Below are positions 10,861 to 32,780 of a stretch of DNA of 64,000 bases, piece by piece. Under the pieces are notes generated by a model. The model was not told where the DNA came from, did not search any database, and saw only the letters and a program-made list of their open reading frames with translations. The stretch lies in contig CAWASG010000001.1 in assembly GCA_963784615.1 (NCBI GenBank), positions 1,824,046 to 1,888,045 of the forward strand, read 5' to 3'. The number at the start of each line of letters is the position of its first letter. The stretch's first letter is position 1. A program made the position numbers and the translations under genes. This stretch comes from an uncultured Gammaproteobacteria bacterium. Lineage in GTDB: Bacteria; Pseudomonadota; Gammaproteobacteria; Legionellales; Legionellaceae.

Positions 10861-10873
10861 TTAGGCGCGATCC

Positions 10874-12586: not shown

Positions 12587-12831
12587 TATATTTTCTCTTT
12601 ATTAGGTAAAACGGGATCATAACCACCACAAGACCACGGGTGGCACTTTACTATTCGGCTGCACGCTAAATAAACGCCTTTTAGAACACCGAAATGTTCT
12701 ATGGCATCTAATGCGTATCTGGAGCAACTGGGATAAAACCGACAACGTGATTGAAGGCATGGACTAATCACATATTGATAAACCTTGATTGGAAAAGAAA
12801 TGATCTGACGTATCATCCCAATTTGCCCCAT
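12586..12831 (-). CDS. yidD: membrane protein insertion efficiency factor YidD
   Basis: 81 aa with a [12 protein letters not shown] motif. An alternative ATG at 12816 overlaps the rnpA stop as ATGA. Confidence 0.8.
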
Positions 12832-13142
12832 GCCTTATTCAAATTAACAATCAATGTTGGATTTTTGACATTTTCTATACCGCGTTTAGCGAGGACAATA
12901 ACATCTAAAGCGGGCAATGTTGTTGTTCGAAACGTTTCTCGTAATAGTCGTTTTACTCGATTTCGCTCGTGTGCTTTGGCGACTGTTTTTTTAGCTATTG
13001 CCAAGCCCAGGCGTGCATGTCCAATGTCATTGTTACGATATAGAAAAATAAACTCTGAGGTTACCCACTTGGTTGCTTTGCTAAAAACGGCGTCATAATC
13101 AGCTTTTTTTAGCAAGCGTTTGTTTCTACAAAACTCGTTCAC
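12813..13142 (-). CDS. rnpA: RNase P protein component
   Basis: 109 aa basic protein immediately downstream of rpmH. Confidence 0.85.
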   Translation of the reverse strand: MNEFCRNKRLLKKADYDAVFSKATKWVTSEFIFLYRNNDIGHARLGLAIAKKTVAKAHERNRVKRLLRETFRTTTLPALDVIVLAKRGIENVKNPTLIVNLNKAWGKLG

Positions 13143-13277
13143 TTATGCGGATAATTTCAAACGACCTTTTGCACGTCGTCGTTTAATCACTAATCGACCA
13201 CCGCGAGTTGCCATTCGAGCACGAAATCCATGATCCCGTTTACGCTTTAAATTACTAGGTTGAAATGTACGTTTCAT
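13143..13277 (-). CDS. rpmH: 50S ribosomal protein L34
   Basis: Hand-translated minus-strand [47 protein letters not shown] (44 aa). Below the ORF-track length cutoff; canonical L34 upstream of rnpA. Confidence 0.9.
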
Positions 13278-13427
13278 AATAATCCTGCCATCAATATTTT
13301 TAGAGTTGGCAATGATATGAAGTTTTTAAAGTATTGTCAATTGCGATTTTGAATAAATATGCATGAAAAAAACACAGGGTTCTTTATTCAAAAACAAGGG
13401 GTCGATTCCACAAAAATAATACCAGAG

Positions 13428-13587
13428 ACCGTTTCCTTTGGTTTTGACAGGAAAACCATACTTCAACGAGGGGTGGCGTGGTGGTGCTTATTTTGCGCGC
13501 GGAATGCAATGAGCACGGAAAATAAGTACCACCATGACAGGCCCACGAGGATCCGTTCTTCAACCTGTCAAAATCAAAGGGAACGGA
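13428..13587. other. structured foldback element, 160 bp (candidate ncRNA or small MITE)
   Basis: A 23-bp long-range inverted repeat (CCGTTTCCTTTGGTTTTGACAGG / CCTGTCAAAATCAAAGGGAACGG) encloses a GC-rich core. The core has a nested 14-bp helix (GTGGTGCTTATTTT / AAAATAAGTACCAC). Confidence 0.4.
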
Positions 13588-13604
13588 TGATAGTTCAATC
13601 ATAA

Positions 13605-14546
13605 CCCATTTTAGGTATTCAATTATTTTATCTGAAACATACAAACAGGCTCAGTTATTATTAAATATCTTTAAATATTTAACTTAAATTTATTATAATG
13701 CCGCGCTTTTCTGTTAATCATTTTTAAAAATGCATATTTATCATGATATTAAGTCAACTTTTATCTTGTTGGTAAGGGCTGATTTTAAGGGATACTTATA
13801 TATGGATAACTTCACTGATGTTTATTTTCGATTAAATTACCCACGGATTAAAGTGGTTATTCACATGATTATACGGAGCTTATACCTCTGTTGTTCACTG
13901 GAATATCTTACTTAAATCACCCCTTACCGTATTTTAGATACATTTTTTTAGCAGAAGGTTCAGTATTATCACTTTTGTTTTCTGTGATAGTCGGTATATG
14001 CTTACTTCTTTCACTATGTGTGTATATGGTGTAATTCGTTTTAATAGAGCTACTGACTGTCCGAGATCAATGCAAACCTCTTTCGTCTACGATATTTAAT
14101 TTAATCAGGACAATTTTATGAAAAGAATGCCGTGAGTTTTTTTGTATGTATGTAGCATTCTTTTCACCGCAGTTATTATTATATATCTTTAAATATTTAA
14201 CTTATATTTATTATAAGGTCGTACATTTCTGTGGATATCCTTTATAATGCTCAGATTTTCAATCTAGTTACGACGATTTCATCATGTTTATAATGATTGT
14301 ATGCAGGCACGAATAAACTAGGGGTAACTTTCTATTTATATTACGCTTGTACTCTATTAACAGGTTTGTTGTAATGAGGATCACACTATACCCACAGGAT
14401 TCAAATCTGGTTCTACTAGATTTAATCACTGTAGATGATGTAAACTTTTTTCAATTTCACGCACAATTGACCGTACAGTTTTTACCTTATTTCGGTTTAT
14501 ATATTTTCTTTTATTTTTTAGTGCTTCAATTTATGAGGAGTTCTTA
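13605..14546. promoter_or_regulatory. candidate oriC / dnaA control region
   Basis: An AT-rich 0.9-kb gap between divergent rpmH and dnaA. DnaA-box-like 9-mers, each one mismatch from TTATCCACA, are at 13801-13809 (TATGGATAA), 13857-13865 (TTATTCACA) and 14230-14238 (TGTGGATAT). Two about 45-bp direct repeats lie at 13654-13698 and 14171-14216. Confidence 0.5.
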
Positions 14547-15938
14547 GTGTCTTTTGATGTTTGGCAACAATGCTTGGGGTTGTTAAAGGAAGAGTACCCT
14601 GCTCAACAGTACAATACCTGGCTACGGCCTTTACAAGTAAAGCTTGACGACTGTCATTTGATATTGCTTGCTCCTAATCGTTTTGTTTCTGAGTGGGTCG
14701 AAAAGAACTTTTTTCAAAGAATAAAAGAACTTGTCGCTCAAATTAGCTCCAATACAATTACTAAGGTCAGTATTTGTGTCGGCAATAAAGTTGTGACAAC
14801 TGACGATGGCGATGATGCCGCTGGTGGAACAGCTGTGGCTTTAGAACAGAAAAATGCTGTTCCTGCTACTGTTTCATCCCCTAAAAAAATTATCGATCAT
14901 TATAAAACCAGTTTTCTCAATAAAAACTTAACTTTTGCTACTTATGTTGAGGGTAATTCAAACCAGTTACCCAAAGAAGCCGCTCGTTTAGTGGCTGAAC
15001 GTCTACCCGGACAAGATCCTTCTGCTCATAATCCATTATTTATTTACGGCGGTGTTGGATTAGGTAAAACCCATTTAATGCATGCCATTGGAAACAAGAT
15101 TCTTGAAAACAAACCCGATGCCAAGGTTCTTTATCTTCATTCCGAGCGTTTTGTGGCCGATATGGTTAAAGCGTTGCAAACAAACTCTATTAATGAATTT
15201 AAACGGTTTTATCGTTCTTTAGATGCACTATTAATCGACGATATTCAGTTTTTTGCGGGAAAAGATCGTTCTCAGGAAGAGTTTTTCCATACATTCAATG
15301 CGTTACTTGAAGGGCAACAGCAAATCGTATTGACCAGTGACCGTTACCCTAAAGAAATTGAAGGTGTAGAAGAAAGACTTAAATCTCGTTTTGGCTGGGG
15401 ATTAACGGTAGTTGTTGAACCGCCAGAGTTAGAAACGCGAGTTGCAATTTTATTGAGTAAAGCTGCTCAATCTAATATTGAATTGCCCTATGAGGTTGCA
15501 TTTTTTATTGCAAAACGAATTCGTTCCAATGTTCGTGAGCTTGAAGGCGCTCTTCGACGCGTTATTGCAAATGCTCAGTTTACAGGCAAACCCATTACAA
15601 TTGATTTCGTCAATGATGCATTACGCGATTTATTGGCTTTACAAGATAAGCTCGTTACTTTGGAAAACATCCAAAAAACAGTAGCAGATTATTATAAAGT
15701 GAAAGTAGCAGATATTTTATCTAAAAGACGGAGTCGCTCGATAGCAAGACCTCGGCAGATGGCAATGGCATTAGCTAAAGAATTAACCAATCATAGTTTG
15801 CCTGAAATTGGTGATAGTTTTGGTGGACGAGATCATACAACTGTTATCCATGCCTGTAAAAAAATTAAAGAGCTTATTATGGAAGGCGGAGAATTTTCTG
15901 AAGACCACAAAAATTTATTGCGTATCTTATCGTCTTAG
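14547..15938 (+). CDS. dnaA: chromosomal replication initiator DnaA
   Basis: 463 aa with a GTG start preceded by GAGGAG. Has the AAA+ [15 protein letters not shown] motif and a C-terminal DNA-binding helix-turn-helix. Confidence 0.95.
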
Positions 15939-15944
15939 CCGGAG

Positions 15945-17057
15945 TTGTTTATGTTTGAATTAACCAGTAGTAAAGCTCAGCTGATGACACCGCTTCTCAC
16001 CGTCGCGGGTGCTGTTGATAAAAAACAATCCACTCCTATTTTATCCAATATTTTGATGAAGTTGACTGAAAATCATTTGCATTTGACAGCAACCGATTTA
16101 GAGATACAAATAACCGCATGTATACCCTGTATTACCCACGGAAACACTGGGGCTATTACTGTTCCTGCTAAGAAAATTGTTGATATCATTCGTTCTTTAG
16201 ATGACGATGCTAATCCCACGATTGCCTTTCATGATGGTATTTTGGCAATTAAAGTTGGTCGAAGCCAGTTTAAATTAGCCACCCTGTCTGCGGAAGGGTA
16301 CCCAAGTAGTCAGGATGAAGTGAGTGAGGTCGAGTTTTCTATACCACGCACCGTTTTATTACATCTTTTTCAATCAACCCATTTTGCCCTAACCCAAAAC
16401 GATGTTCGCTTTTTTTTGAATGGTTTGCTCTTGGAGCTTGATTCACAGTCCATTTCCGTTGTCGCTACCGATGGGCATCGCATGGCGATTTCGCGTTGCT
16501 TGATCCAGCAAAATAATCAACATCATCGTTTACTTATTCCGCGTAAGGCCATTCAGGAATTGTTACGTTTACTGACTCACATTGAAGATGAGAACGTATT
16601 CATTTCTGCGGGAAAAAATCATTTCAAATTTGTCAGTCAGCAATATACTTTTGTTTCGAAGTTGATCGAATCTCGTTTTCCTGCTTATGCGAAAGTGATT
16701 CCAAGAGATCAGGATAAGCACGTGATCATTGACCGTGAATTATTGAAGCGTTCTCTTTCGCGCATCATGATTTTAGCGAATGAAAAACTACGTGCAATTA
16801 CATTATTTATTCAACCGAACCAACTCACTCTAATTGCTAATAATCAGCAAAAAGAAGAAGCTATCGAAGAGTTGATGGCTCAAACCGTGGGCGGGGAACT
16901 TGAAATTAATATTAATGCGAGTTATTTATTTGATGTACTTAATTACATTGAAGGCGAAACTATTCGGTTGTCATTTTCTGATACCAACCAGAGTATTCTG
17001 GTTGAATCGATTCTCGATCCATTGTATCAATATATTATTATGCCGATGAAGCGATGA
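15945..17057 (+). CDS. dnaN: DNA polymerase III beta sliding clamp
   Basis: 370 aa, follows dnaA in the conserved order. Confidence 0.93.
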   Translation: MFMFELTSSKAQLMTPLLTVAGAVDKKQSTPILSNILMKLTENHLHLTATDLEIQITACIPCITHGNTGAITVPAKKIVDIIRSLDDDANPTIAFHDGILAIKVGRSQFKLATLSAEGYPSSQDEVSEVEFSIPRTVLLHLFQSTHFALTQNDVRFFLNGLLLELDSQSISVVATDGHRMAISRCLIQQNNQHHRLLIPRKAIQELLRLLTHIEDENVFISAGKNHFKFVSQQYTFVSKLIESRFPAYAKVIPRDQDKHVIIDRELLKRSLSRIMILANEKLRAITLFIQPNQLTLIANNQQKEEAIEELMAQTVGGELEININASYLFDVLNYIEGETIRLSFSDTNQSILVESILDPLYQYIIMPMKR

Positions 17058-18106
17058 GTGTTTGTCAACTTAACATTCATTCATTACGGAATATTCATCA
17101 AGCCAAATTAACCCTTCACCCTTCGTTTAATGTGTTTCACGGTGCTAATGGAAGTGGAAAAACATCAGTGCTCGAAGCGATTTATCTTTTATCGGCAGGC
17201 TATTCTTTTAAAACCCGTGAAACGCTTCCTTTGGTTCGCTATGGCGAGCGCCATTTAACGGTCTATGCGCGAACATTTTCTGATGAAACGGTTAGCCTTA
17301 GAAAAATTATTTCAGGACCTACGCAAGTTAAGTTGAATACTCAGTCCTGTCAGAAGAATAGTATGCTGGCCCGGTTTATTCCTTGCCAAGTGTTTTACCA
17401 AGATATTTTTCAAATCATCGATGCTGGCCCTTCTGTTCGTCGCAGTCTGATGGATTGGGGAGTGTTTCACGTGAAACATGAGTATCATGAGTTATGGCGT
17501 AACTATCGACAGGTATTGAAACAGCGTAATGCATTACTTCGCCAGCGGCCTTCTCGAAATAACATTTTGCCGTGGGATCGTCAGCTGGTTGAATTGGCCA
17601 ATGACTTAAATCAACTTCGACAAGATTACTTTAAAGAATGGCAGGTTGCCTTTCAGCAGTTTCTCTCTCAGTTAAGTGATATTGAATGCACGATTAATTA
17701 TTATCGTGGTTGGCGTGACAATGGAAAGACCCTTGATGTGATCCTGGAAGAGCAGTTTGCAGCCGATTGCCAACGTCAATATACACAATCAGGCGCCCAT
17801 CAAGCGGATATTCGGTTTGAAACGACCAATGCAACCGCAAAACAAGGCTTATCACGCGGGCAGCAGAAGATTATATTAATTGCCCTGAAGCTCGCTCAAG
17901 GACATTTACTGGAAAAAAATTGTATTTATTTGTTTGATGATATCACGGCAGAATTGGATATTAATCATGTTAGGCAATTAATGCGTTGTTTGCAGGATGT
18001 AAAAGGTCAAAAAATTATGACTGTATTAGATCCGGTTTCCCTTCAATCAGTATTAGATACAACAGAAGTTCAATATTATCATTTGAATCAGGGAACTGTT
18101 GTATGA
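17054..18106 (+). CDS. recF: DNA replication/repair protein RecF
   Basis: 350 aa with a GANGSGKTSVLEAIY Walker A motif. Follows dnaN. Confidence 0.93.
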   Translation: MSVCQLNIHSLRNIHQAKLTLHPSFNVFHGANGSGKTSVLEAIYLLSAGYSFKTRETLPLVRYGERHLTVYARTFSDETVSLRKIISGPTQVKLNTQSCQKNSMLARFIPCQVFYQDIFQIIDAGPSVRRSLMDWGVFHVKHEYHELWRNYRQVLKQRNALLRQRPSRNNILPWDRQLVELANDLNQLRQDYFKEWQVAFQQFLSQLSDIECTINYYRGWRDNGKTLDVILEEQFAADCQRQYTQSGAHQADIRFETTNATAKQGLSRGQQKIILIALKLAQGHLLEKNCIYLFDDITAELDINHVRQLMRCLQDVKGQKIMTVLDPVSLQSVLDTTEVQYYHLNQGTVV

Positions 18107-18111
18107 CATGT

Positions 18112-18537
18112 TTATTTCCACCATTTTGGTTTTATGAGTTTAACTTTGAGTTGCCATCCATTTTTTTCAACAGTTGCGCGCACTAATTCACGAATTTTTC
18201 CAAAATCGTATGCATAATCTTCACCGCCCAATACAAATCCTTCGCCACTTCCTGAGCGCTCAAGTCCTTTGACAATGTAACTTTCTTTGGAAAAACCGGA
18301 TGTCTCACCCCCCCATCCAGAGGATTTTTTTGAGATCATATCCCAGTAATAGACCGTTTTCTTATCCGCATCTAACAAGGCACGGCCAGAAAAGCTAATT
18401 CTGATGTTGTTTACCCATCCCTTGGATTCCGAATTTGTTTTAAAATCAAGAATATTGGGATCTACCTGCTTTACATGAAGGAGATCATTGGCAAGTGATA
18501 AGAGGTCATGTATCAGGGGTTCATTTGTAGTGTCCAT
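18112..18537 (-). CDS. hypothetical protein (141 aa, Gly/Ser-rich centre, no recognisable family)
   Basis: Intact ORF convergent on the recF 3' end and apparently co-oriented with the upstream TM2-domain gene. Occupies the position where gyrB normally lies. Confidence 0.5.
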   Translation of the reverse strand: MDTTNEPLIHDLLSLANDLLHVKQVDPNILDFKTNSESKGWVNNIRISFSGRALLDADKKTVYYWDMISKKSSGWGGETSGFSKESYIVKGLERSGSGEGFVLGGEDYAYDFGKIRELVRATVEKNGWQLKVKLIKPKWWK

Positions 18538-18577
18538 TTCAATGTCTCCAAAAGAAGTGCAAACAAGTAACGAGATA

Positions 18578-19822
18578 TTATTGAATCGTCATTGCCTCAT
18601 AGAATTTTTTAGCAATAGGCAGATCCTTGTCATATTGTGACTCTGTAGAGGTATACGACCAGTTATATAATGGGGATTGAGCATCTTTGGTTACTACAAA
18701 GTCGAGCCGTTTGAATAATTGATTGTTATGAGTAAAAGTAGAAAGCAAATATTCACCCTTAAATTGTTTTGGATTTTGCGGGAGTTCTGCAGCACCTTGA
18801 TCTAAAAATTTCGCATTAGGATCAATTTTACCAATCTGATTTTTAAGAGAGTTAACATATTCTGTTGTGGTTAAATATTGCCCATCTGGGTTTTTCGCAA
18901 AAATCATAGTTACGATAATCAATGACTCATATGAAGATGTGCCTTTTTTTCCTCTGCAAAAAAATGACCCTGCAAGTTTTGAGCCATAATCCCAGTTTTT
19001 CAGACAAATTACAGAAAAATAGCCTTTTGGATCTTTGTAAACAAAAATGTCATTAGAAGTGGCGTCTGTAGGCGTTGAAAGGGCTTTTTCGGATTTGCTA
19101 CTTTCCAAATTTGTTTCAAGAAACGCTTTGTATTGCGCATCTTGCTCACTTTCTTTTGGATTGATCAGCAAGCCGAATATCTTCCATTGATTATCCTCTT
19201 TAATTAAAAGGTATTGGATACCTATAACCGTACCGTCTTCCCCTTTCAACGTTCCTGTTACTATCCCTCGACTATTGTTAATTTCCCTTTTTGAAAATGA
19301 CGTACTTGCATTGTGGCTCAGGGGAGGATATCGATTTATAAATTCCTTAAACTGATCAAGAGAATGACTGCTTTGAAATTCTTTTGCAGTATACGCGTAG
19401 GATCCTTGAAAATCATTCATTCTTGCAGCTTCAAGATGTTTTTCAATCACTTTAACCAAGCCGCTGGTTAAAAACATTGCGAACATGGTAATAAGGAAGA
19501 CGATAATGACAATCTCAATTATCGTTGCAAGTATGATGCTTAGCCCTTTTTTTAACATGGATGGATCACTTATGCAGGTTAATAAGCGTCCTTGTTTGTC
19601 CTTAAAGGAGTTACTGATAATCGAAATGGCGTCAATCAAAGACCATAATCCAAAACATCCGAAGGTGACGAGCATGAGTAATCCAGTCCAGATTTTACCC
19701 ACATAAAGTCGATGCAGACCAAACACACCGAAAAAGACACACAAAAAAAGAGCTGTTAAACCTGATTTTGAACTTTTGTTTGCAGTCTGTTGGGACTGTT
19801 GCTCAACATTGGTGATTGTCAT
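18578..19822 (-). CDS. TM2-domain membrane protein with a large C-terminal extracytoplasmic region
   Basis: 414 aa. The N-terminal LFLCVFFGVFGLHRLYVGKIWTGLLMLVTFGCFGLWSLIDAISII matches the TM2 double-helix motif. A third TM helix follows, then about 280 aa of mixed alpha/beta sequence. Confidence 0.6.
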   Translation of the reverse strand: MTITNVEQQSQQTANKSSKSGLTALFLCVFFGVFGLHRLYVGKIWTGLLMLVTFGCFGLWSLIDAISIISNSFKDKQGRLLTCISDPSMLKKGLSIILATIIEIVIIVFLITMFAMFLTSGLVKVIEKHLEAARMNDFQGSYAYTAKEFQSSHSLDQFKEFINRYPPLSHNASTSFSKREINNSRGIVTGTLKGEDGTVIGIQYLLIKEDNQWKIFGLLINPKESEQDAQYKAFLETNLESSKSEKALSTPTDATSNDIFVYKDPKGYFSVICLKNWDYGSKLAGSFFCRGKKGTSSYESLIIVTMIFAKNPDGQYLTTTEYVNSLKNQIGKIDPNAKFLDQGAAELPQNPKQFKGEYLLSTFTHNNQLFKRLDFVVTKDAQSPLYNWSYTSTESQYDKDLPIAKKFYEAMTIQ

Positions 19823-19920
19823 GCTTTCATCCTTGAATTTGATTTCATAGTTTAAGCATAGACGATTTTTAGCAATAGATTATTATGGACTGTTGCAGAT
19901 GAGGGTTTAGGTTTAGCTTG

Positions 19921-19952
19921 CGTAGGTTGGGTTGCATCTTTATGCAACCCAA
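19921..19952. repeat. mini-REP (GTAGGTTGGGTTGCATCTTTATGCAACCCAAC)
   Basis: Compact variant at the recF-side synteny break. Confidence 0.7.
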
Positions 19953-19974
19953 CAAGAGCTACTGCGGATGGATG

Positions 19975-20442
19975 CTAGCGTGTATGTACAGTTGGATTGT
20001 GTTCGTGTGCATGCACTTGCACATCGGCTCGCCCTTGATCATGGCTGTGTTCATGGCCATGACCATAAGCTTGTTCATTGACGTGTCCATGTTCATGGAT
20101 ATCTTGAGGAGGAGCGCCTCTCATCCAATGATGTGAAAGCCATTTCCACTTTCCGCACCGTCCGTGTCGACCAGGGGAAACGCAACCCCAGTAGCCGGAA
20201 ACCCAGACAGCTGAACGTGACGCCCTTGGATTAGAGCATTCTTGATGCGGCGGTATCCACATGTTATCAATCCACATCCCTCTGGTGACATAACAATGGG
20301 TATAACCCTGGGGTGGTGCGACGATAACTTGTGCAGGCGGTGGCGCTACGGATATGGAAATGTCAATACCAGTGTGATGTCTGGCTTGGGCCGTGAGGCT
20401 CATTAGTAGGATAGACAATAAAGCAAAACAACGAGTAAACAT
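19975..20442 (-). CDS. secreted Trp/Cys-containing protein with a His-rich C-terminal tail (possible periplasmic metal binder)
   Basis: 155 aa with a signal peptide (MFTRCFALLSILLMSLTAQA). The tail HEHGHVNEQAYGHGHEHSHDQGRADVQVHAHEH is repeatedly HxH. Confidence 0.55.
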   Translation of the reverse strand: MFTRCFALLSILLMSLTAQARHHTGIDISISVAPPPAQVIVAPPQGYTHCYVTRGMWIDNMWIPPHQECSNPRASRSAVWVSGYWGCVSPGRHGRCGKWKWLSHHWMRGAPPQDIHEHGHVNEQAYGHGHEHSHDQGRADVQVHAHEHNPTVHTR

Positions 20443-20652
20443 GAAATACCCCTTAATTCAGGTGAACGGTTACATGGATTAAATATATCGCTCAAAATAA
20501 TAACATGTTCATATTTTTACTGATAGCAGAATAGAAACGATAATTTCTGTTCACAACGTTCTCCCCAATGTTTAATATGAAAACCTTGCAATACTCTATC
20601 TTCGTCTACTATAGTTAAGTCATTCTTAATACGAAACATAAAAGTGCTGACC

Positions 20653-21762
20653 ATGGCAAAAATTGGCTTATATCTAGCAGGCGGTGGTGCTCGCGGTGCT
20701 TATCAGGCTGGCGCTCTGAAAGCTATTGGCGAAATATTACAAACGGATAAGTTGCCGTTTACGATGCTGAGTGGCGTAAGCATAGGGGCAATCAATGCTT
20801 CGGTGCTTGCCCAACATGCTGACGATTTTTTGATGGGGATCGATTGCCTTGAGCGTTTATGGTCCAATATCCATTGTGATCAAATATTTAATACAAGTAA
20901 CTTTGAGCTCGGGAAATCAGTCGTCCGTAATTTAGGTCAATTTTTGGTAAAACAACGTCGGTCAGGTTTTTTACTGGATACGGCGCCATTGAATGACTTT
21001 GTGGATAATAATATTAATTTTGAAAGAATTCGCAATAATATTGCAGAAAATCATTTGGAAACATTTGAAGTCATTGCGAACTGCTATGAAACAGAACAAA
21101 CCGTGTCTTTTTACCAGCACTCTATACCAGGATTTGAAGATTGGGCCTACCATCGACACATCAGTCGATCTGCTGTTATCAATAAGAATCACATTATTGC
21201 TTCTGGATCACTGCCACTTTTTTTCCCAGCCATAGACATCGATGGTTTGCATTATGGGGATGGGAGCGTTGGGTTGATCTCACCTCTTCGCGGGGCGTTA
21301 CGATTTAATGTCGAAAAAGTGATGATTATTGGAACCCGTCAACTACCCCACACAATTAAGCCAGACATATCGAATGGCGAGGATATTGGCTTTGCTCAAG
21401 TGCTTGGTAATATGCTCAATGGTCTATTTCTTGATAATCTTGATAGGGACATTGAGATGGTTAATCGTATGAATGAGATCGCTCGTTTGCTGTCGATTTG
21501 GAATAAGCACAAATCGCCCTGGCGACCGATTGAGACCCTCTATCTGCGTCCTACCACGAGCATGGCTGCGATGGCTCAAGACCATTACAAAGCAATGCCC
21601 ACGTTATTACGCATGCTCTTAAACGTTCTGGGAGCAAAAAATCATTCGGGCGACTTATTAAGCTTTTTGTTGTTTGAAAAGGAATTTACACAGCAATTAA
21701 TTGAAACAGGGTATACCGATACCATGAATCAATATAAATCAATTGTCGCGTTTTTCGAGTAA
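20653..21762 (+). CDS. patatin-like phospholipase
   Basis: N-terminal GLYLAGGGARGAYQAG oxyanion motif plus the GVSIGAINA nucleophile-elbow GxSxG. Start taken at MAKIGL. Confidence 0.8.
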   Translation: MAKIGLYLAGGGARGAYQAGALKAIGEILQTDKLPFTMLSGVSIGAINASVLAQHADDFLMGIDCLERLWSNIHCDQIFNTSNFELGKSVVRNLGQFLVKQRRSGFLLDTAPLNDFVDNNINFERIRNNIAENHLETFEVIANCYETEQTVSFYQHSIPGFEDWAYHRHISRSAVINKNHIIASGSLPLFFPAIDIDGLHYGDGSVGLISPLRGALRFNVEKVMIIGTRQLPHTIKPDISNGEDIGFAQVLGNMLNGLFLDNLDRDIEMVNRMNEIARLLSIWNKHKSPWRPIETLYLRPTTSMAAMAQDHYKAMPTLLRMLLNVLGAKNHSGDLLSFLLFEKEFTQQLIETGYTDTMNQYKSIVAFFE

Positions 21763-25495: not shown

Positions 25496-27427
25496 ATGAG
25501 CACGCAAGAGTTTTTGTCTGACTATACCAAGCGCTTTGTGGATAACAAAGAAGAAGAGATGAGCCTGCAGGAATATTTGGATCTCTGTGCAACAGATCCA
25601 TCGGCTTATGCGAATCCAGCGGAGCGGTTGTTAATGGCCATTGGCGAACCGGAGTTGGTTGATACTCGTCACGACCCGGTGTTGTCTCGATTGTTCTCCA
25701 ATAAAATCATTTCGCGTTATGCCGTGTTTAAAGACTTCTATGGATTGGAAGAGCCGATTGAGCAAATCGTTGGTTTTTTAAAGCACGCGGCACAGGGGCT
25801 TGAAGAAACCAAGCAAGTCTTGTATCTCTTGGGGCCTGTGGGTGGCGGGAAGTCGTCGCTGGCGGAGAAACTCAAAGAGCTCATGCAGAAAGTCCCTTTT
25901 TATGCGATCAAAGGCTCGCCAGTGTTTGATTCTCCCTTGTCGCTGTTTAACCCGGAAGAAGATGCTGAGTTGTTACAAGATCGCTTCGGCATTCCTTCAC
26001 GTCATTTACGTTATACCTTGTCTCCATGGGCCATTAAACGACTCCATGAATACAATGGTGACATTAACCAGTTTCGCGTGATTAAAGTCAGGCCTTCACG
26101 CTCAAAGCAAATTGCGATTGCAAAAACCGAACCAGGCGATGAAAACAATCAGGATATTTCATCACTCGTCGGTAAAGTGGATATTCGAAAATTAGAGCAA
26201 TTTTCTCAAGATGATCCCGATGCCTATAGTTATTCCGGCGGATTGTGTCGTGCTAATCGGGGATTGCTCGAATTTGTGGAAATGTTCAAGGCACCGATTA
26301 AAGTCTTGCACCCCTTGCTGACGGCAACGCAGGAAGGGAATTACAATGCTACGGAAGGGTTGTCATCGATTCCTTTTGAAGGGATTATTTTGGCGCATTC
26401 CAATGAGGCTGAATGGCAAACCTTTAGAAATAATAAAAACAATGAAGCGTTTATCGATCGTATCAATATCGTTAAAGTGCCTTATTGTTTGCGTTTTTCT
26501 GAAGAGAAGAAAATTTATCAAAAATTATTGGATAACAGTTCTTTGTCGAAAGCGTCTTGTGCACCGGGTACTTTAGAAATGTTAGCGCAATTTTCCGTGT
26601 TGACTCGCCTGAAAGATCCACAGAATTCAAACATATTTTCTAAAATGCGCGTGTATGACGGGGAGGGTATTAAAGATACCGATCCGAAGGCCAAATCCTA
26701 TCAGGAATACCGTGATTTTGGTGGCGTTGATGAGGGCATGAGTGGTATTTCAACGCGGTTTGCTTTCAAGATTTTGTCTAAAGTATTTAATTTTGATCAC
26801 ACCGAAATTGCCGCTAACCCGGTTCATTTACTCTATGTTCTTGAGCGACAAATTGAGCAGGAGCAATTCCCGCAAGAAATTCAAGAAAAATACCTGGCTT
26901 ATATCAAAGAATATTTATCACCTAAATACGTCGAGTTTATTGGCAAAGAGATTCAAACGGCCTATTTAGAATCGTACTCAGAGTATGGCCAAAATATTTT
27001 TGACCGATACATCACTTACGCGGATTTCTGGATTCAGGATCAAGATTATCGTGATCCGGATACAGGCGAAATTTTTGACCGAGAGTCTTTGAATGCTGAT
27101 TTAGAGAAAATTGAAAAACCAGCAGGGATCTCCAATCCAAAAGATTTTCGTAATGAGGTGGTGAATTTTGTGCTTCGGGCACGGGCGAATAATCACGGGA
27201 AAAATCCGAAATGGAATAGTTATGAAAAATTAAAAACTGTGATTGAGAAAAAAATGTTTACGAATACTGAGGATTTATTACCGGTGATTTCGTTTAATGC
27301 CAAAGCCTCTGAAGATGACAAGAAAAAACACGCGGACTTTATCGACAGAATGGTGGATAAGGGTTACACCGCCAAGCAAGTTCGATTGTTGTGCGAGTGG
27401 TATTTACGGGTGCGTAAATCGCAGTAA
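25496..27427 (+). CDS. yeaG: PrkA/YeaG family serine protein kinase
   Basis: 643 aa with an LLGPVGGGKSSLAEKLK P-loop. First gene of the conserved yeaG-yeaH-ycgB triad. Confidence 0.92.
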   Translation: MSTQEFLSDYTKRFVDNKEEEMSLQEYLDLCATDPSAYANPAERLLMAIGEPELVDTRHDPVLSRLFSNKIISRYAVFKDFYGLEEPIEQIVGFLKHAAQGLEETKQVLYLLGPVGGGKSSLAEKLKELMQKVPFYAIKGSPVFDSPLSLFNPEEDAELLQDRFGIPSRHLRYTLSPWAIKRLHEYNGDINQFRVIKVRPSRSKQIAIAKTEPGDENNQDISSLVGKVDIRKLEQFSQDDPDAYSYSGGLCRANRGLLEFVEMFKAPIKVLHPLLTATQEGNYNATEGLSSIPFEGIILAHSNEAEWQTFRNNKNNEAFIDRINIVKVPYCLRFSEEKKIYQKLLDNSSLSKASCAPGTLEMLAQFSVLTRLKDPQNSNIFSKMRVYDGEGIKDTDPKAKSYQEYRDFGGVDEGMSGISTRFAFKILSKVFNFDHTEIAANPVHLLYVLERQIEQEQFPQEIQEKYLAYIKEYLSPKYVEFIGKEIQTAYLESYSEYGQNIFDRYITYADFWIQDQDYRDPDTGEIFDRESLNADLEKIEKPAGISNPKDFRNEVVNFVLRARANNHGKNPKWNSYEKLKTVIEKKMFTNTEDLLPVISFNAKASEDDKKKHADFIDRMVDKGYTAKQVRLLCEWYLRVRKSQ

Positions 27428-27442
27428 AATCAGAGTTCTGCG

Positions 27443-27526
27443 TAGGTTGGGTTGAGGCTGGTAAGCCGAAGCCCAACAAAACCATCCATGTTGGGCTTCG
27501 GCTTACCAGCCTCAACCCAACCTACG
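27443..27526. repeat. REP-like palindrome between prkA and yeaH
   Basis: Full copy (GGTAAGCCGAAG subtype), followed by two AACCTACGTGC partial repeats. Confidence 0.9.
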
Positions 27527-27589
27527 TGCTCAATCGAACCTACGTGCAACCTAGGGACATAAGCAGTAATCACAGGGGGTAACCAAGCC

Positions 27590-28852
27590 ATGACGCAACT
27601 TATCGATCGTCGACAAAATGCTGGTAAGAAAAGCACGGTTAATCGGCAGCGATTTTTGCGTCGTTATGCAAAGCAAATTAAGCAAGCGGTGACCGATGCG
27701 ACTGGCAAGCGTAAAATAACGGAAATTGCCAAGGGTGAACAAATCACGATTCCGGCCAAGGATATTGCTGAGCCGCGGTTTCATCGTGGTGAGGGCGGCA
27801 AGGTCGAACGCATTCTTCCAGGTAACGATGTCTTTAATGCAGGCGATCGCGTAAAACGTCCTGATGGCGCTCAGGGTGATGGCGGTGGCAGTGAGGCGAG
27901 TAATCAAGGTGAAGGGGAGGATGATTTCGTCTTTCAAATCTCAAGAGAAGAGTTTTTAGAAATTTATTTTGAAGATTTGGAATTACCTGATTTAGTAAAA
28001 AAAGAATTGGCGAGTCTGCCGAATTTTAAAACGGTGCGTGCGGGCATCACCAGCAGCGGCACGCCAACGAATATCAACGTCCCTCGCTCCATGCGTCAAG
28101 CAACAGGGCGTCGTGTGGCGCTCTCATCTCCACGCAAACAAGAATTACGCGAAACACAAGCTGCACTGGATGCCTTGCTTGCAGCAGACAGCCCTGATGA
28201 AGCTGAGAAGCTTCGCTTGCAAGAGCGTATTACTTTCTTGCAAGGACGCATCAACGCTATTCCCTTTATTGATACCTTTGATTTACGTTACAACAGTCGT
28301 GTACGCGTCAAAGTGCCCACAGCACAAGCCGTGATGTTTTGCGTGATGGACGTTTCAGGTTCGATGGATGAAGCGAAAAAAGACATCGCCAAACGCTTTT
28401 TTATTCTGTTGTATCTTTTTTTAACGCGAAATTACAAAAAAATTGATTTGGTTTTTATCCGCCATCACACGTCAGCCAAGGAAGTGAATGAGGAAGAGTT
28501 TTTCTACTCACGTGAAACCGGCGGGACGGTGGTATCGAGCGCACTCGAGTTGCTCTATGAGACGATTCAAAAGCGTTATAACCCTGCCGCGTGGAATATT
28601 TATGTTGCCCAGGCGTCTGATGGGGATAACTGGAATGCTGATTCGCCTTATTGCCTGGAGTTACTCGAAGACAAAATTATGCCGCTGCTGCAATATTTTG
28701 CTTATATCGAAATTATGCCGCGTCATCATCAAAGCCTGTGGGAAGTGTATCAAACGATACATGACCAGCATGCTAATTTTGCGATGGAAAATATAGATAC
28801 GGTGGCTGATATTTATCCAGTCTTTCATGAGTTATTTAAAAGGAAAGTCTGA
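27590..28852 (+). CDS. yeaH: YeaH family protein (DUF444, vWA-like)
   Basis: 420 aa; N-terminal LIDRRQNAGKKSTVNRQRFLRRY is characteristic. Follows prkA. Confidence 0.9.
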   Translation: MTQLIDRRQNAGKKSTVNRQRFLRRYAKQIKQAVTDATGKRKITEIAKGEQITIPAKDIAEPRFHRGEGGKVERILPGNDVFNAGDRVKRPDGAQGDGGGSEASNQGEGEDDFVFQISREEFLEIYFEDLELPDLVKKELASLPNFKTVRAGITSSGTPTNINVPRSMRQATGRRVALSSPRKQELRETQAALDALLAADSPDEAEKLRLQERITFLQGRINAIPFIDTFDLRYNSRVRVKVPTAQAVMFCVMDVSGSMDEAKKDIAKRFFILLYLFLTRNYKKIDLVFIRHHTSAKEVNEEEFFYSRETGGTVVSSALELLYETIQKRYNPAAWNIYVAQASDGDNWNADSPYCLELLEDKIMPLLQYFAYIEIMPRHHQSLWEVYQTIHDQHANFAMENIDTVADIYPVFHELFKRKV

Positions 28853-30375
28853 TGAGAAAGAAAAAACCGCTGTCAACCACATCTGAATGGACGTTTGAAT
28901 TACTCAACGACTACGATCGTGAGATAGGCCGTTTGGCCAAAGCATTTAAGCTGAGCACTTATCCCAATCAAATCGAAGTGATCACCGCTGAGCAAATGAT
29001 GGATTGTTATGCCTCGGTTGGTATGCCGATTAATTACCATCACTGGTCTTATGGAAAGCATTTTATTGGTGTTGAGAAAAGCTATCAACGCGGCGAAATG
29101 GGGTTGGCTTATGAATTGGTGATTAATTCCAATCCCTGTATTGCGTATTTGATGGAAGAAAATACGATGGCGATGCAGGCCTTAGTAATCGCCCATGCCT
29201 GTTATGGCCATAATTCGTTTTTTAAAAATAATTATTTATTTAAAATGTGGACGTCCGCGGATGCAATTGTGGATTATTTAGTGTTTGCCCGGCGCTATAT
29301 CAGTGAATGTGAAGAGCGATACGGCATCGATGAAGTTGAGTCTACGCTCGATGCTTGTCATGCCTTGATGAATTATGGTGTTGATCGTTACAAGCACCCG
29401 AGTAGCTTGTCATTGCAAGAAGAAAAAATTCGCCAGCAAAATCGCGAGATGTATTTGCAAACGCAGGTGAATGAATTATGGCGAACGATCCCGCAGGCCA
29501 AAGGGGCGTTAAAAGACATCGAGAAAAAGCGCTTTCCTGAAGAGCCGCAAGAAAATCTGCTCTATTTTATCGAAAAAAATGCGCCACTTCTGCAACCTTG
29601 GCAACGGGAGATTGTGCGTATTGTCAGAAAAATGGCGCAGTATTTTTATCCTCAAGGACAAACCAAAGTGATGAATGAAGGGTGGGCAACCTTCTGGCAT
29701 TATACGTTGATGAATGCGCTTTATGATGAGCGCTTGGTGACGGATGAGTTTATGCTGGAAATTTTGCAAAATCACACCAACGTCATTCGCCAACCGGCCT
29801 ATAATAGCCCTCATTTCAGTGGCATCAACCCCTATACGCTGGGTTTTCATATGATGCAAGACATCCGGCGTATTTGTGAAAATCCTACCGATGAAGACAA
29901 ACAATGGTTCCCGCATTTGGCCAATACAGACTGGCTGACAAGCCTTGATGACGCCATGCGTAATTACAAAGATGAAAGCTTTATCGCCCAGTTTTTATCA
30001 CCGCATTTGATGCGCGAGTTAAAGCTGTTTCATATGGTTGATGATACTCAGAATCCTGAATTATGGATTCAATCGATTCACAACGACCAAGGCTACCAAC
30101 ACATCCGGGAAGCCTTATCCAGTCAATACAATTTAGGTAATCAAGAGCCCAATATTCAAGTCTATTCGGTGGACATAGAAGGCGATCGCTCACTCACCCT
30201 TCATCATACACAACATAATCGCGTGCCACTGGGCGCATCGACGGCCGAGGTATTAAAGCATTTGTACACGTTATGGAAGTTTCCCGTCGTGCTTAAAACC
30301 GTTGATCTGCAACAAAAGGTTACCGCAGAATATCACTGCCCGCCGAAAGCAGAGGCAAGTGGCACGAAACCGTAG
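28852..30375 (+). CDS. ycgB: SpoVR family protein
   Basis: 507 aa, third member of the PrkA-YeaH-SpoVR module. Its TAG stop lies inside the GTAGG head of a mini-REP element. Confidence 0.9.
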   Translation: MRKKKPLSTTSEWTFELLNDYDREIGRLAKAFKLSTYPNQIEVITAEQMMDCYASVGMPINYHHWSYGKHFIGVEKSYQRGEMGLAYELVINSNPCIAYLMEENTMAMQALVIAHACYGHNSFFKNNYLFKMWTSADAIVDYLVFARRYISECEERYGIDEVESTLDACHALMNYGVDRYKHPSSLSLQEEKIRQQNREMYLQTQVNELWRTIPQAKGALKDIEKKRFPEEPQENLLYFIEKNAPLLQPWQREIVRIVRKMAQYFYPQGQTKVMNEGWATFWHYTLMNALYDERLVTDEFMLEILQNHTNVIRQPAYNSPHFSGINPYTLGFHMMQDIRRICENPTDEDKQWFPHLANTDWLTSLDDAMRNYKDESFIAQFLSPHLMRELKLFHMVDDTQNPELWIQSIHNDQGYQHIREALSSQYNLGNQEPNIQVYSVDIEGDRSLTLHHTQHNRVPLGASTAEVLKHLYTLWKFPVVLKTVDLQQKVTAEYHCPPKAEASGTKP

Positions 30376-30410: not shown

Positions 30411-30454
30411 GGCGTTCATTGACAAAAGTCGCACATCGTTCTAATATGTTAAAT

Positions 30455-30751
30455 ATGACAATAAAAAAAATACATTATGAATTTTCAGCTGATAAAAATC
30501 GCACTTTAATACAGGAGCGAGGTGTTAGCTTTGAAGATGTTATATCGGCATTAGATAACGAGAAATTGCTTGATATTCTCAAGCACCATAATGATTTGAA
30601 GTATCCAAATCAAATGATCTATGTCATTAATCTTAATGGATACATATATTTAGTGCCATTTGTAAGAAAAAATGAGCACGTCATTTTTCTCAAAACTATT
30701 TTTCCAAGCCGAAAACTGACCAAAATATATTTAAGTGATAGGGGTGTGTGA
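30455..30751 (+). CDS. brnT: BrnT-like toxin (DUF497, RelE/ParE-fold ribonuclease family)
   Basis: Track ORF 30419..30751. Start taken at MTIKKIHYEFSADKNRTL. The ERGVSFEDV...VPFVRKNE..IFLKTIFPSRKLTKIY pattern matches BrnT, and the 4-nt ATGA overlap with the next gene is typical of TA pairs. Confidence 0.7.
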   Translation: MTIKKIHYEFSADKNRTLIQERGVSFEDVISALDNEKLLDILKHHNDLKYPNQMIYVINLNGYIYLVPFVRKNEHVIFLKTIFPSRKLTKIYLSDRGV

Positions 30752-31047
30752 TGAAAAAAATACAAGACGTGTTTAATGTTCAACTTGATCAAGAAGAGAA
30801 AGAACTTTTGGAGTCGGTTGAGCGTGGTGAATGGCAAACGGTAAAAACAGTTGAAGAAGAAATGGCTCTTTCTAAGGAAGCTGCAGCAAATTTTCATCGT
30901 AAAGATGAGCGTATAACGCTTCGTCTCTCGAGTGGCGATCTTGATCGTTTAAAACAAAAAGCGGCTTATAAAGGCCTGCCTTATCAAACATTTATCGCTA
31001 GCGTGTTACATGAGTACGCGGCAGGACACTTTAAAGAAGTAGCTTAG
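30748..31047 (+). CDS. brnA: BrnA-like antitoxin (ribbon-helix-helix)
   Basis: 99 aa; the C-terminal RITLRLSSGDLDRLKQKAAYKGLPYQTFIASVLHEY is the BrnA RHH motif. Translationally coupled to brnT. Confidence 0.7.
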   Translation: MMKKIQDVFNVQLDQEEKELLESVERGEWQTVKTVEEEMALSKEAAANFHRKDERITLRLSSGDLDRLKQKAAYKGLPYQTFIASVLHEYAAGHFKEVA

Positions 31048-31220
31048 GGCCATTTAATCTTAGCCCGCATGAACTGTTTTTTTCAATCCATACGGGCTGA
31101 TGATTCACTGTTGTGGTGTAGACGTTGGCAAATCAGCTGGCAAAGACATTTTTGCAGCAGCCGTTGCCAAATCCGATAGCCTTTGTGGGTTTCTTCCCGT
31201 TTTTTCGGTTGAAAAGAACG

Positions 31221-32780
31221 TCAGGCCATCAGGGTTTCTCGTAAGCTTTGTTGTATTTCTGCTGTAATCACTCTTGCTTGTCCTGCGTTGGCATCAATTT
31301 GTGCAATGGCTGCTTTATTCTCAGCGATTCGTCGATTGGCCTCGGCGGTTGATTGTTGTGTTCCCAGTTGGCGGATGGTCTCATGATAGACGCCATCAGC
31401 AGGAAGAATTTTGGTAATTTGTAAATCAGAAATACGCAGCCCCCAATCTTTCGCTTTTTCATCTAGCGCATTAACCAAGTCATCATGAATTTGGCTCAAC
31501 TTTTCGGTTCTTTTTGAGCTATGATGCGCTTCATCAGTATGAAGAGATGGTGCTATATCCGCCGAACTAAAGCGACTAAGAATAGTACGTAGAGTACCAT
31601 CAGCGAAAGTCTTCAAAAAGTTAATAATAGAAGAGATACCTAGTCCCACGGTTTTCAGTGGTTCCTCTACTCGATAAACCAACATTGATTCTGCTTGCAT
31701 CTCGATTTGATCACTACACATCACGGTCAATGGCGGTAATACAACACCTTGAGGGCTTGTTGTAATTATGGCATTAAAAAAATTGCCCTCTTCTTGTTTT
31801 ATTTCATGTTTACCCGGCCCTTTAGTGATAACACCTATCTGCGTATTGATAACGGCGACTTGGCCTTCTTTAACCGTAATGATTTTATAAGCACCTAAAT
31901 CCACCACATCATTTTGAATCGATACTTTTTTAACAAAAATATGATCCGCGGGCAAAACATGTCTTCCGGGTTCGAGTAAACAAAATATCCCCTTTTGGTA
32001 GGACTCACCTAATTCGCCATTACGGATGGTCACATAACGTTTATTGCCCAGTCTAAAATCGTCATGACCAATATGTTGTAAGCCGTTAGTTTGATCAAAT
32101 GTTTCATTATCATAGGTCTTGATTTCATGAATGCCAGGATGCAATTCTACAAAATTTCCTGCGGCATCTGTTTTGACACCTAAATAACCCTCTTTAATTC
32201 TCACTAGCTTGATAGGGCCAAAATCGATGTAATCATCAGCGATATTTTTAACACCATTCAAAACCTCTCCAGCAGCGATATTGATCTCATGCACGCCTTG
32301 ATCCAACCGGATAAGCCGGCTGTTTGCATCCGTTTTGTATCCTATTTGATCGCCTCGGACTCGGACGATTCGTAGAGATCCAAAATGACTATCGGGATTT
32401 GTAATGGGTTGAATATCTGTCGCTGGATTAAAGCGTTCATTATTCGAAACATCAATGATATGAATGCCAGGATTTAGTCTTATAAGCGTGCCGTTTGAAT
32501 TTGTTTTATAAGCGATTTGATTCGCATCAACACGAACTCTTTTAAATGGGCCAAAATCGATATAATCTAACGATTTGTTAAAAATTTCGCCAAATGTATC
32601 GAAAGGGTAAGGACGAAAATGAAGTCCTTCTTCAATCAGCTCGGTAGTTCCATCGTTAGACTGAACCAAACATAACTCATCCGATTGAACCCGCCGGATG
32701 CTTTTTGCTAAAGCAAGCCAACCAATAACCGGGATAGCCAAATATACAGCTCCCAATACATATTTAAAAAAGCTATTCAT
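31221..32780 (-). CDS. membrane-anchored SPFH (band-7) domain protein with six N-terminal tandem about 55-aa repeats
   Basis: 519 aa with an N-terminal TM helix. Six repeats follow the motif [D]FGP.K.V.V..GQ.G.KTD..G..I.L.PG.HEI. The C-terminal domain (MLVYRVEEPLKTV ... coiled-coil AEANRRIAENKAAIAQIDANAGQARVITAEIQQ) is stomatin/HflK-like. Confidence 0.7.
   Translation of the reverse strand: MNSFFKYVLGAVYLAIPVIGWLALAKSIRRVQSDELCLVQSNDGTTELIEEGLHFRPYPFDTFGEIFNKSLDYIDFGPFKRVRVDANQIAYKTNSNGTLIRLNPGIHIIDVSNNERFNPATDIQPITNPDSHFGSLRIVRVRGDQIGYKTDANSRLIRLDQGVHEINIAAGEVLNGVKNIADDYIDFGPIKLVRIKEGYLGVKTDAAGNFVELHPGIHEIKTYDNETFDQTNGLQHIGHDDFRLGNKRYVTIRNGELGESYQKGIFCLLEPGRHVLPADHIFVKKVSIQNDVVDLGAYKIITVKEGQVAVINTQIGVITKGPGKHEIKQEEGNFFNAIITTSPQGVVLPPLTVMCSDQIEMQAESMLVYRVEEPLKTVGLGISSIINFLKTFADGTLRTILSRFSSADIAPSLHTDEAHHSSKRTEKLSQIHDDLVNALDEKAKDWGLRISDLQITKILPADGVYHETIRQLGTQQSTAEANRRIAENKAAIAQIDANAGQARVITAEIQQSLRETLMA

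Follow-up and report, generated by a model that had tools for sequence, protein, structure and literature searches.

A membrane-anchored SPFH protein with six tandem SPFH1-like modules, encoded by a truncated allele in a Legionellaceae genome

Introduction

SPFH proteins consist of a transmembrane (TM) segment, the SPFH1 and SPFH2 domains, the coiled coils CC1 and CC2 and a C-terminal (CT) region; they assemble as domed rings on membranes, and the CC and CT regions make up the closed end of the solved cages (PMC12624060). In the structural work of 2022 to 2026, SPFH proteins build membrane-attached cages, and the vault, an assembly of many SPFH1 modules, is the exception among them, uniquely having no membrane association (PMC12624060). 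Repeats R1-R9 in major vault protein (MVP) have been described as SPFH1-like modules and its shoulder as SPFH2 (PMC12915596, PMC11348225). HflK/HflC, QmcA, stomatin, prohibitin and erlin have one SPFH1 module each, whereas the protein described here has six. Its gene lies in a stretch of 64,000 nucleotides (hereafter the window) from an uncultured bacterium of the Legionellaceae (assembly GCA_963784615.1, contig CAWASG010000001.1, positions 1,824,046 to 1,888,045).

In-silico work has put forward MVP homologues from Myxococcales, Cytophagales, cyanobacteria and Herpetosiphon (PMC3762200; bioRxiv 10.1101/872010), and an Asgard archaeal MVP homologue has five repeats (PMC12962969). A first-pass annotation of the window, made by a model from the sequence alone, had taken a vault-like layout to be unfamiliar among characterised bacterial SPFH proteins. 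The proposals above qualify that statement; the retrieved passages of the three reports mention neither Legionella nor a membrane-anchored form.

Results

Domain order and repeat modules

The gene product is a membrane-anchored SPFH superfamily protein in which SPFH1 occurs six times instead of once. It is identical to protein P0001 of public assemblies. The features of the gene are as follows (coordinates are those of the window; residues are those of the protein; HMM, hidden Markov model).

31221..32780, reverse strand: whole open reading frame (ORF) of 519 amino acids (aa) plus stop codon, comprising TM helix, six beta-modules, SPFH2 core and truncated coiled coil (ORF list)
32700..32768, reverse strand: N-terminal TM helix, residues ~5-27, 'YVLGAVYLAIPVIGWLALA' (Kyte-Doolittle 19-residue mean 2.0; helix 2-27 in the structure model)
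32559..32699, reverse strand: module R0, residues 28-74, diverged and membrane-proximal (out-of-clade repeat HMM match at 30-55, 10 bits, E 3e-5)
32388..32558, reverse strand: module R1, residues 75-131 (BLASTP against R2 E 1e-13, against R3 E 1e-14; HMM 30 bits)
32226..32387, reverse strand: module R2, residues 132-185 (BLASTP against R1 E 1e-13, against R3 E 1e-11; HMM 24 bits)
32055..32225, reverse strand: module R3, residues 186-242 (BLASTP against R1 E 1e-14, against R2 E 1e-11, against R5 E 1e-6; HMM 32 bits)
31902..32054, reverse strand: module R4, residues 243-293 (pairwise BLAST weak; out-of-clade repeat HMM 32 bits)
31731..31901, reverse strand: module R5, residues 294-350, SPFH1-like lead-in of the Band_7 match (repeat HMM 16 bits at 295-326; R3 against R5 E 1e-6)
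31395..31730, reverse strand: SPFH2 alpha/beta core, residues 351-462 (Pfam Band_7; E360-371, H374-444 and E448-460 in the model; Foldseek)
31224..31394, reverse strand: C-terminal helix, residues 463-519, a coiled coil cut short (modelled as helix 463-518; family alignment)

Pfam Band_7 (PF01145) matched residues 302-489 (E 6.5e-18; 65.8 bits against a curated cut-off of 23.6), which places the protein in the SPFH / Band_7 superfamily (Pfam clan CL0433). The N-terminal membrane attachment of that superfamily was also found, as a predicted hydrophobic helix (residues 5-27, Kyte-Doolittle 2.0) that is kept in the family. Repeats with a spacing of ~53 aa lie upstream of the Band_7 domain. R1, R2 and R3 showed 35-44% mutual identity (BLASTP E 1e-11 to 1e-14); R0 and R4 were far more diverged from them than R1-R3 were among themselves, and R0 had the strand pattern of the other modules in the AlphaFold model. 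A repeat HMM, trained solely on proteins outside the Legionella clade to avoid circularity, detected six modules (residues 30-55, 76-110, 133-167, 187-220, 244-276 and 295-326, scoring 10, 30, 24, 32, 32 and 16 bits, respectively). The repeat region reached 146 bits in total, and the highest of 300 shuffles reached 11.8 bits.

The first-pass annotation had read the protein as one TM helix, six tandem repeats and then one SPFH domain. Its TM helix, its Band_7 domain and the statistical reality of its repeats were all confirmed. Its arithmetic was not: the sixth module belongs to the Band_7 match, as its N-terminal beta part, and is not an additional repeat, so that the count becomes five added modules plus one complete SPFH domain.

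Searches of other collections with the protein were mostly negative. NCBIfam gave 0 families, HflK/HflC equivalogs included, PADLOC gave no match to the SPFH protein, and the sole PHROGs match was the generic SPFH-core family phrog_200. A promoter and terminator scan gave a signal no better than that of shuffles.

Predicted structure

The AlphaFold2 model of the full protein, built from a 22-sequence family alignment, had a mean predicted local distance difference test score (pLDDT) of 85. A helix (2-27) led into six all-beta modules; behind these came an alpha/beta core, with strands up to residue 371, helices over 374-444 and a strand at 448-460, and finally a long helix (463-518). The segments E298-371, H374-444, E448-460 and H463-518 correspond to the SPFH alpha/beta fold with a long coiled-coil helix after it. 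When the full model was compared with the PDB (Foldseek), the top matches were the MVP chains 9z4w, 9r86, 9bw6, 7pkz, 6bp7 and 4v60 (E 1.6e-13 to 4e-10), which aligned over 570-640 columns. Only ~220 columns were aligned for stomatin, prohibitin, HflK/C, erlin, QmcA and flotillin (E 1e-10 to 1e-6 for stomatin, prohibitin, HflK, erlin and flotillin). The SPFH2 core region was also matched structurally by the MVP shoulder, stomatin, prohibitin and HflK.

Residues 27-297 were modelled separately to take out the contribution of the SPFH core. This repeat-only model had a pLDDT of 91.7, and its top Foldseek matches were again MVP chains (E 1e-4 to 9e-3), which were the sole matches at a probability of 0.96-1.0; the remaining matches (adhesins, Ig-like proteins and viral glycoproteins) all had a probability below 0.25. 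Because the query was without the SPFH2 core, the MVP matches mean that the module resembles the SPFH1 sub-domain. The three-dimensional architecture is of the MVP type, with a tandem beta-repeat array, then a shoulder, then a cap helix. Both models thus bear out the first-pass suggestion that SPFH lead-in modules, each a beta-structure, are arranged in a vault-like layout, which agrees with the current view of MVP (PMC12915596, PMC11348225).

Sequence comparison with MVP

Sequence models of MVP did not recognize the protein. The Pfam Vault models PF01505, PF17794, PF17795 and PF17796 gave no match up to an E of 10 in the protein, the repeat region or single repeats; MVP_shoulder (PF11978) gave no match in the protein, where Band_7 only was found; and none of 63 scanned relatives (0/63) matched the Vault or MVP_shoulder models. 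Real MVPs bear PF01505, PF17794-6 and PF11978 in a Pfam scan. The Pfam scan of single repeats and of the repeat region returned chance-level matches alone, CzcE and SPP1_Dit, each below cut-off.

The family profile retrieved PH stomatin (E 3e-6), QmcA (E 3e-5) and HflK (E 4e-4) from the PDB sequences (HMMER), and MVP was not retrieved by this search. With the repeat-region profile (A2) and the 81-sequence repeat-unit profile (A6), nothing relevant was obtained from the PDB sequences, neither MVP nor canonical SPFH proteins. An MVP profile was then derived from a human MVP query (validated against the PDB over 1-893 of 893). In an hhalign comparison with this profile, the 34-column repeat core gave no significant match (probability 3.7%; its best position was where MVP R6 begins). 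The profile was vertebrate-only, with an effective sequence number (Neff) of 1.7, because it drew on the best 120 homologue matches; an MVP profile of greater diversity might perform better.

The deep profile of the C-terminal half of the family was colinear with MVP 525-849 (hhalign probability 92%, E 5e-7). The reversed MVP profile still gave E 1.6e-3, and much of this match is therefore coiled-coil composition. When the parts were compared separately, the SPFH2 core profile reached only E 0.0085 against the MVP shoulder (MVP 523-647), the coiled coil alone scored barely above its reversed control, and the C-terminal tail alone was not significant against MVP. The likeness of the tail to the MVP cap region was rejected as independent evidence on account of the tail result and the reversed control.

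Judged by its sequence, the protein is not a member of the MVP family. The relationship to MVP is architectural and structural, within one superfamily, and orthology is not demonstrable. The close similarity of R1-R3 and the varying number of modules fit an independent, lineage-specific repeat expansion.

Truncation of the window copy

All 21 of the other family clusters run 70-130 aa past the end of the window protein, with further coiled coil and a conserved tail, 'NPVFVQP.LG.T...G.TFFST.K'. The homology of the window copy in the frame of the ORF ends at '...AEIQQ'. In another frame, a remnant of the tail, 'NTTKLTRNPDGLTFFSTEKTGRN...', overlaps the 3′ end of the ORF and stops at the apparent ancestral stop codon.

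31105..31236, reverse strand: out-of-frame remnant of the family C-terminal tail, 'NPDGLTFFSTEKTGRN...PQQ*' (tblastn of homologue tails, three-frame translation, alignment to the tails of P0002 and P0008)

The window copy has an internal deletion of ~87 codons and a frameshift, and most of the coiled coil and the tail are gone. The C-terminal CC2/CT part of the SPFH superfamily is thus absent here and present in the other 21/21 clusters; the coiled-coil tail of the first-pass annotation is seen as helix 463-518 of the model, in a shortened form. A contig of an independent assembly was 100% identical over 4.1 kb, which makes a local assembly error improbable, though one isolate may underlie both; the deletion and frameshift are probably not such an error. 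Since it is with their CC and CT regions that the solved SPFH cages are closed, the window copy is probably impaired or decaying in this genome.

Family, distribution and membrane attachment

The close family comprised 22 clusters (48-73% identity, 486-651 aa; word-indexed search). The three clusters with a taxonomic label were all from Legionellaceae, one of them from the named isolate Legionella sp. CNM-4043-24 (P0008, 593 aa), and a scan of species-representative genomes gave two loci only, both in Legionellaceae metagenome-assembled genomes. The exhaustive HMMER search of 1.84 billion representatives with a repeat-only profile found 228 proteins at E ≤ 1e-3, 74 of them at E ≤ 1e-10, and Band_7 was present in 44 of the 63 relatives scanned from this set. 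The wider family had 2-9 modules per protein (iterated repeat HMM) and the close relatives had 4 to 7, R0 counted. R0 occurred in nearly all full-length relatives, though it was detected by the HMM in few.

Relatives outside the bacteria included a genome-encoded protein of Thecamonas trahens (XP_013753352.1, 'Band 7 domain-containing protein'), a Harvfovirus protein (AYV80399.1, 'prohibitin domain-containing protein'), transcripts of the Amoebozoa Phalansterium and Soliformovum, and an MMETSP protist protein with nine modules. The Thecamonas and Harvfovirus proteins share the repeat module (repeat-only profile) and were both in the 63-protein Band_7 scan, but they are 800-900 aa long, have long low-complexity N-terminal regions and carry automatic annotation only.

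Members of a clade with lengths of 850-970 aa were found on ENA contig NODE_2463 (L012, 15.4 kb) and on IMGVR_UViG_3300032132_000708 (L014). The L012 contig has densely packed ORFans and a dynamin gene, and the IMG/VR contig is 624 kb long, which indicates giant viruses. In a neighbour-joining tree this giant-virus-like clade stood beside the Legionella TM-anchored clade, a placement that is a hint only, the tree being crude (identity distances, no support values). Two 900-aa members were on bacterial contigs, one of which also had ankyrin, eukaryotic-kinase, thaumatin and DUF5630 genes; this set is a Legionellales-type repertoire.

A hydrophobic helix directly before the first module was present in 51 of 134 proteins, often with a P-h-h-G-W motif. 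The motif 'P-(V/I)-(V/L/I/F)-G-W' of the TM helix (window residues 14-21) recurred in the distant proteins P0088, P0107, P0108, P0162 and P0164, which are probably eukaryotic, and suggests that the membrane anchor is ancestral and not a bacterial addition. Some uncharacterised relatives had Cys-rich hydrophobic patches where a clean TM helix would be. Such a patch before the first module (e.g. 'CFLGYCVCCCTCGL') was seen in P0075, P0081, P0111, P0139, P0104, P0142 and P0166 (giant-virus-like, some protist), and it is reminiscent of the palmitoylated membrane hairpins found in stomatin and flotillin. With a helix or a Cys-rich patch in this position, attachment to a membrane beside the module array appears to be characteristic of the family.

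The family is undescribed so far and is common to Legionella, giant viruses and protists. Literature searches for Legionella SPFH effectors and for giant-virus SPFH proteins gave nothing relevant.

Genomic surroundings

The neighbouring features of the window are listed below.

~10000..20000: sign change of the GC skew (cumulative minimum near 10-14 kb), with a GC content of 36-38% between 12 and 20 kb
20644..21762, forward strand: patatin-like phospholipase gene (E 3.9e-23)
25496..30375, forward strand: conserved prkA - DUF444 (yeaH-like) - spoVR operon, immediately upstream of the toxin-antitoxin pair
30419..31047, forward strand: overlapping pair of small genes, a BrnT-toxin-like gene (24 bits, below the Pfam cut-off of 34.5) followed by a CopG/BrnA-type antitoxin gene (38 bits, above cut-off)
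34440..35900, reverse strand: 486-aa ATPase (Pfam ATPase_2, AAA_16, DUF234), matching PADLOC candidate PDC-S27 (E 7.8e-87), two genes from the SPFH gene
36192..38585, reverse strand: 797-aa protein with a signal-peptide-like hydrophobic N-terminus and a eukaryote-type thaumatin domain
39041..42631, forward strand: MoxR AAA+ ATPase - DUF58 - VWA cluster (BatA-type arrangement), at the far border of the accessory stretch in which the SPFH gene lies

The skew change and low GC content could be signs of foreign DNA or of an origin or terminus of replication. Patatin-like phospholipases are well represented among Legionella effectors. The window PrkA was 88-95% identical to PrkA of many named Legionella species, which assigns the window to the genus Legionella; for the window SpoVR protein, an exact look-up gave no record. 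A full-length homologue of the 797-aa thaumatin protein (L011 1979-4309, 26% identity, E 5e-41) was found on a Legionellales-like contig, L011, that also bears a 902-aa member of the SPFH-repeat family.

The BrnT/BrnA pair is present beside the SPFH gene, as had been noted at first pass. The search for homologues and their contexts was productive in its first part (see the close and wider relatives above) and gave no conserved neighbourhood in its second: a BrnT/BrnA-type pair was not in the neighbourhoods of the relatives examined, and this neighbourhood is therefore uninformative on function. The gene neighbourhoods of three relatives shared nothing with one another or with the window, so the SPFH-repeat gene stands alone. 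No HflC-type paralogue, NfeD gene or FtsH gene was found adjoining the gene, at the window or in the three relatives examined, nor was a second SPFH gene found of the kind that HflK/HflC would have. The arrangement also differed from a stomatin-NfeD operon (e.g. QmcA-YbbJ): the neighbours were the toxin-antitoxin pair and a GNAT gene at the window and were unrelated in the three TM-clade relatives.

Discussion

The observation made at first pass is confirmed, and as a statement about architecture its interpretation is supported: the gene encodes an SPFH protein with a TM anchor and multiple SPFH1 modules, six in tandem, and the locus holds a truncated allele. We consider it probable that the protein is of a membrane-anchored scaffold type, that full-length members of its family would form a tall, membrane-capped cage and that the window copy is impaired. 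The cage mechanism is modelled on the behaviour of all structurally solved SPFH proteins. By this analogy, full-length members would most likely line up side by side into a large ring held on the membrane by the TM helices; the stacked beta-modules would form a tall barrel wall, the role that the MVP repeats have in the vault; and the SPFH2 domains would close the far end together with the long coiled coil and the conserved C-terminal tail. Such a cage, capped by the membrane, would enclose a lumen and set apart a membrane patch, much like half a vault seated on a membrane. The varying module number suggests that the height of the wall may be tuned by repeat gain and loss, and the occurrence of the family in Legionella, Legionellales-like bacteria, giant viruses and protists points to horizontal exchange inside amoebae.

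Several points weigh against this proposal. Ring or cage formation is extrapolated from other SPFH proteins. No sequence-level link was detected between the repeats and canonical SPFH1 or the MVP repeats, and the C-terminal match to MVP is reproduced to a large extent by the reversed profile (E 1.6e-3). The charges flanking the TM helix do not tell whether the bulk of the protein is cytoplasmic or periplasmic. The window copy may be non-functional. No conserved partner gene was present in the relatives examined, and hence no cargo or client can be named.

The same evidence bears on four other explanations. A true MVP orthologue, a bacterial vault acquired from an amoebal host that forms closed, soluble particles, is favoured by the top rank of MVP among the structural matches, both of the full protein and of the isolated repeats. 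The C-terminal half of the family is also colinear with three parts of MVP, namely shoulder, cap helix and cap region (hhalign probability 92%, E 5e-7), eukaryote-like genes are a known feature of Legionella, relatives occur in Amoebozoa, and there are earlier proposals of bacterial MVP homologues (PMC3762200, bioRxiv 10.1101/872010). Such orthology is nevertheless very unlikely. The Vault and MVP_shoulder models, all of which real MVPs have, match neither the protein nor its single repeats nor the 63 relatives; the profile search of the PDB retrieves stomatin, QmcA and HflK and not MVP; the repeat profile is not significant against MVP; and the hhalign signal is largely reproduced by reversed MVP, with E 0.0085 for the core alone and no significance for the tail alone. 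The N-terminal TM helix is also at odds with a vault that has no membrane association (PMC12624060), as are six modules with nine, in a family whose module number varies between close relatives. An ordinary protease regulator of the HflK/HflC or stomatin type, with the N-terminal beta region as an uninformative spacer, would account for the best sequence matches among solved structures (PH stomatin, E 3e-6; QmcA, 3e-5; HflK, 4e-4) and for the annotation of relatives as 'regulator of protease activity HflC' in one source. It would not account for the five well-supported extra modules with a confident fold, which are unseen in the structures of HflK/C, QmcA, stomatin, prohibitin and erlin (~220 columns each), and it is also opposed by the lack of any NCBIfam family, HflK/HflC equivalogs included, and of an adjacent paralogue, NfeD or FtsH gene at the window or in relatives. 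We regard this explanation as improbable, and the HflK/C-type reading was rejected because the neighbours are not conserved.

A Dot/Icm-translocated Legionella effector that would mimic a host SPFH scaffold and act on host membranes appears, from sequence and distribution, unlikely but worth keeping in view. The labelled members of the close family are all from Legionellaceae, where they are patchy (22 clusters, one named isolate), homologues occur in protists and giant viruses, the genomic context varies, the related bacterial forms of 900 aa have ankyrin, eukaryotic-kinase, thaumatin and DUF5630 genes around them, and full-length members have a conserved polar C-terminal tail. However, the strongly hydrophobic N-terminal helix (Kyte-Doolittle ~2.0) is expected to insert into the bacterial inner membrane, the literature search found no paper linking an SPFH protein to Legionella effectors, and the window copy has lost the C-terminal tail, the usual site of Dot/Icm signals. 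The position of the gene, between the BrnT/CopG-like pair and the ATPase matching PADLOC candidate PDC-S27 (E 7.8e-87), could also be read as that of an anti-phage defence island component acting with both. The SPFH protein itself has no PADLOC match, no examined relative shares these neighbours, and this explanation, which is highly improbable, was rejected for want of conserved neighbours.

The membrane-anchored SPFH scaffold may have a wider meaning. As a tentative proposal, the family would be an unrecognised class of tall, membrane-anchored half-vault SPFH cages with a variable SPFH1 stack, intermediate to the vault, whose genes circulate among protists, giant viruses and Legionella. If so, it would link the one-module membrane cages (HflK/C, stomatin, prohibitin) to the soluble nine-module vault as a living structural intermediate, and would show how the vault wall could arise through tandem duplication of SPFH1. 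A family in which a multi-SPFH1 wall goes together with a membrane anchor, and whose repeats are still clearly alike, mutually and to the SPFH lead-in, would be a tractable model that could reveal how such walls evolve and what added wall height does, which bears on the origin of the vault. The distribution of the family, in Legionella, giant viruses and amoeba-related protists, adds an example of genes exchanged between organisms that come together within amoebae, and a role in host interaction is a possibility that it raises. The significance is lower for this locus, because its copy is truncated.

The protein and MVP share the N-to-C order of a tandem array of ~55-aa SPFH1-like beta-modules, an SPFH2-type alpha/beta shoulder and a long helix; full-length family members likewise have a C-terminal tail, and MVP is the best structural match in the PDB for the whole protein and for the repeats alone. 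They differ in that MVP has nine modules and the window protein six, in that the window protein has a predicted N-terminal TM anchor whereas MVP is soluble and the vault is not membrane-associated, and in that the family repeats are more alike than the MVP repeats would predict and differ in number among close relatives. The proposed prokaryotic MVP homologues likewise combine several MVP-like repeats with a Band-7-like shoulder and a long helix, but they were found by BLAST or reciprocal structure matches to MVP and are described as soluble. In contrast, the present family is missed by sequence models of MVP, carries a TM anchor and has its members in Legionella, giant viruses and protists.

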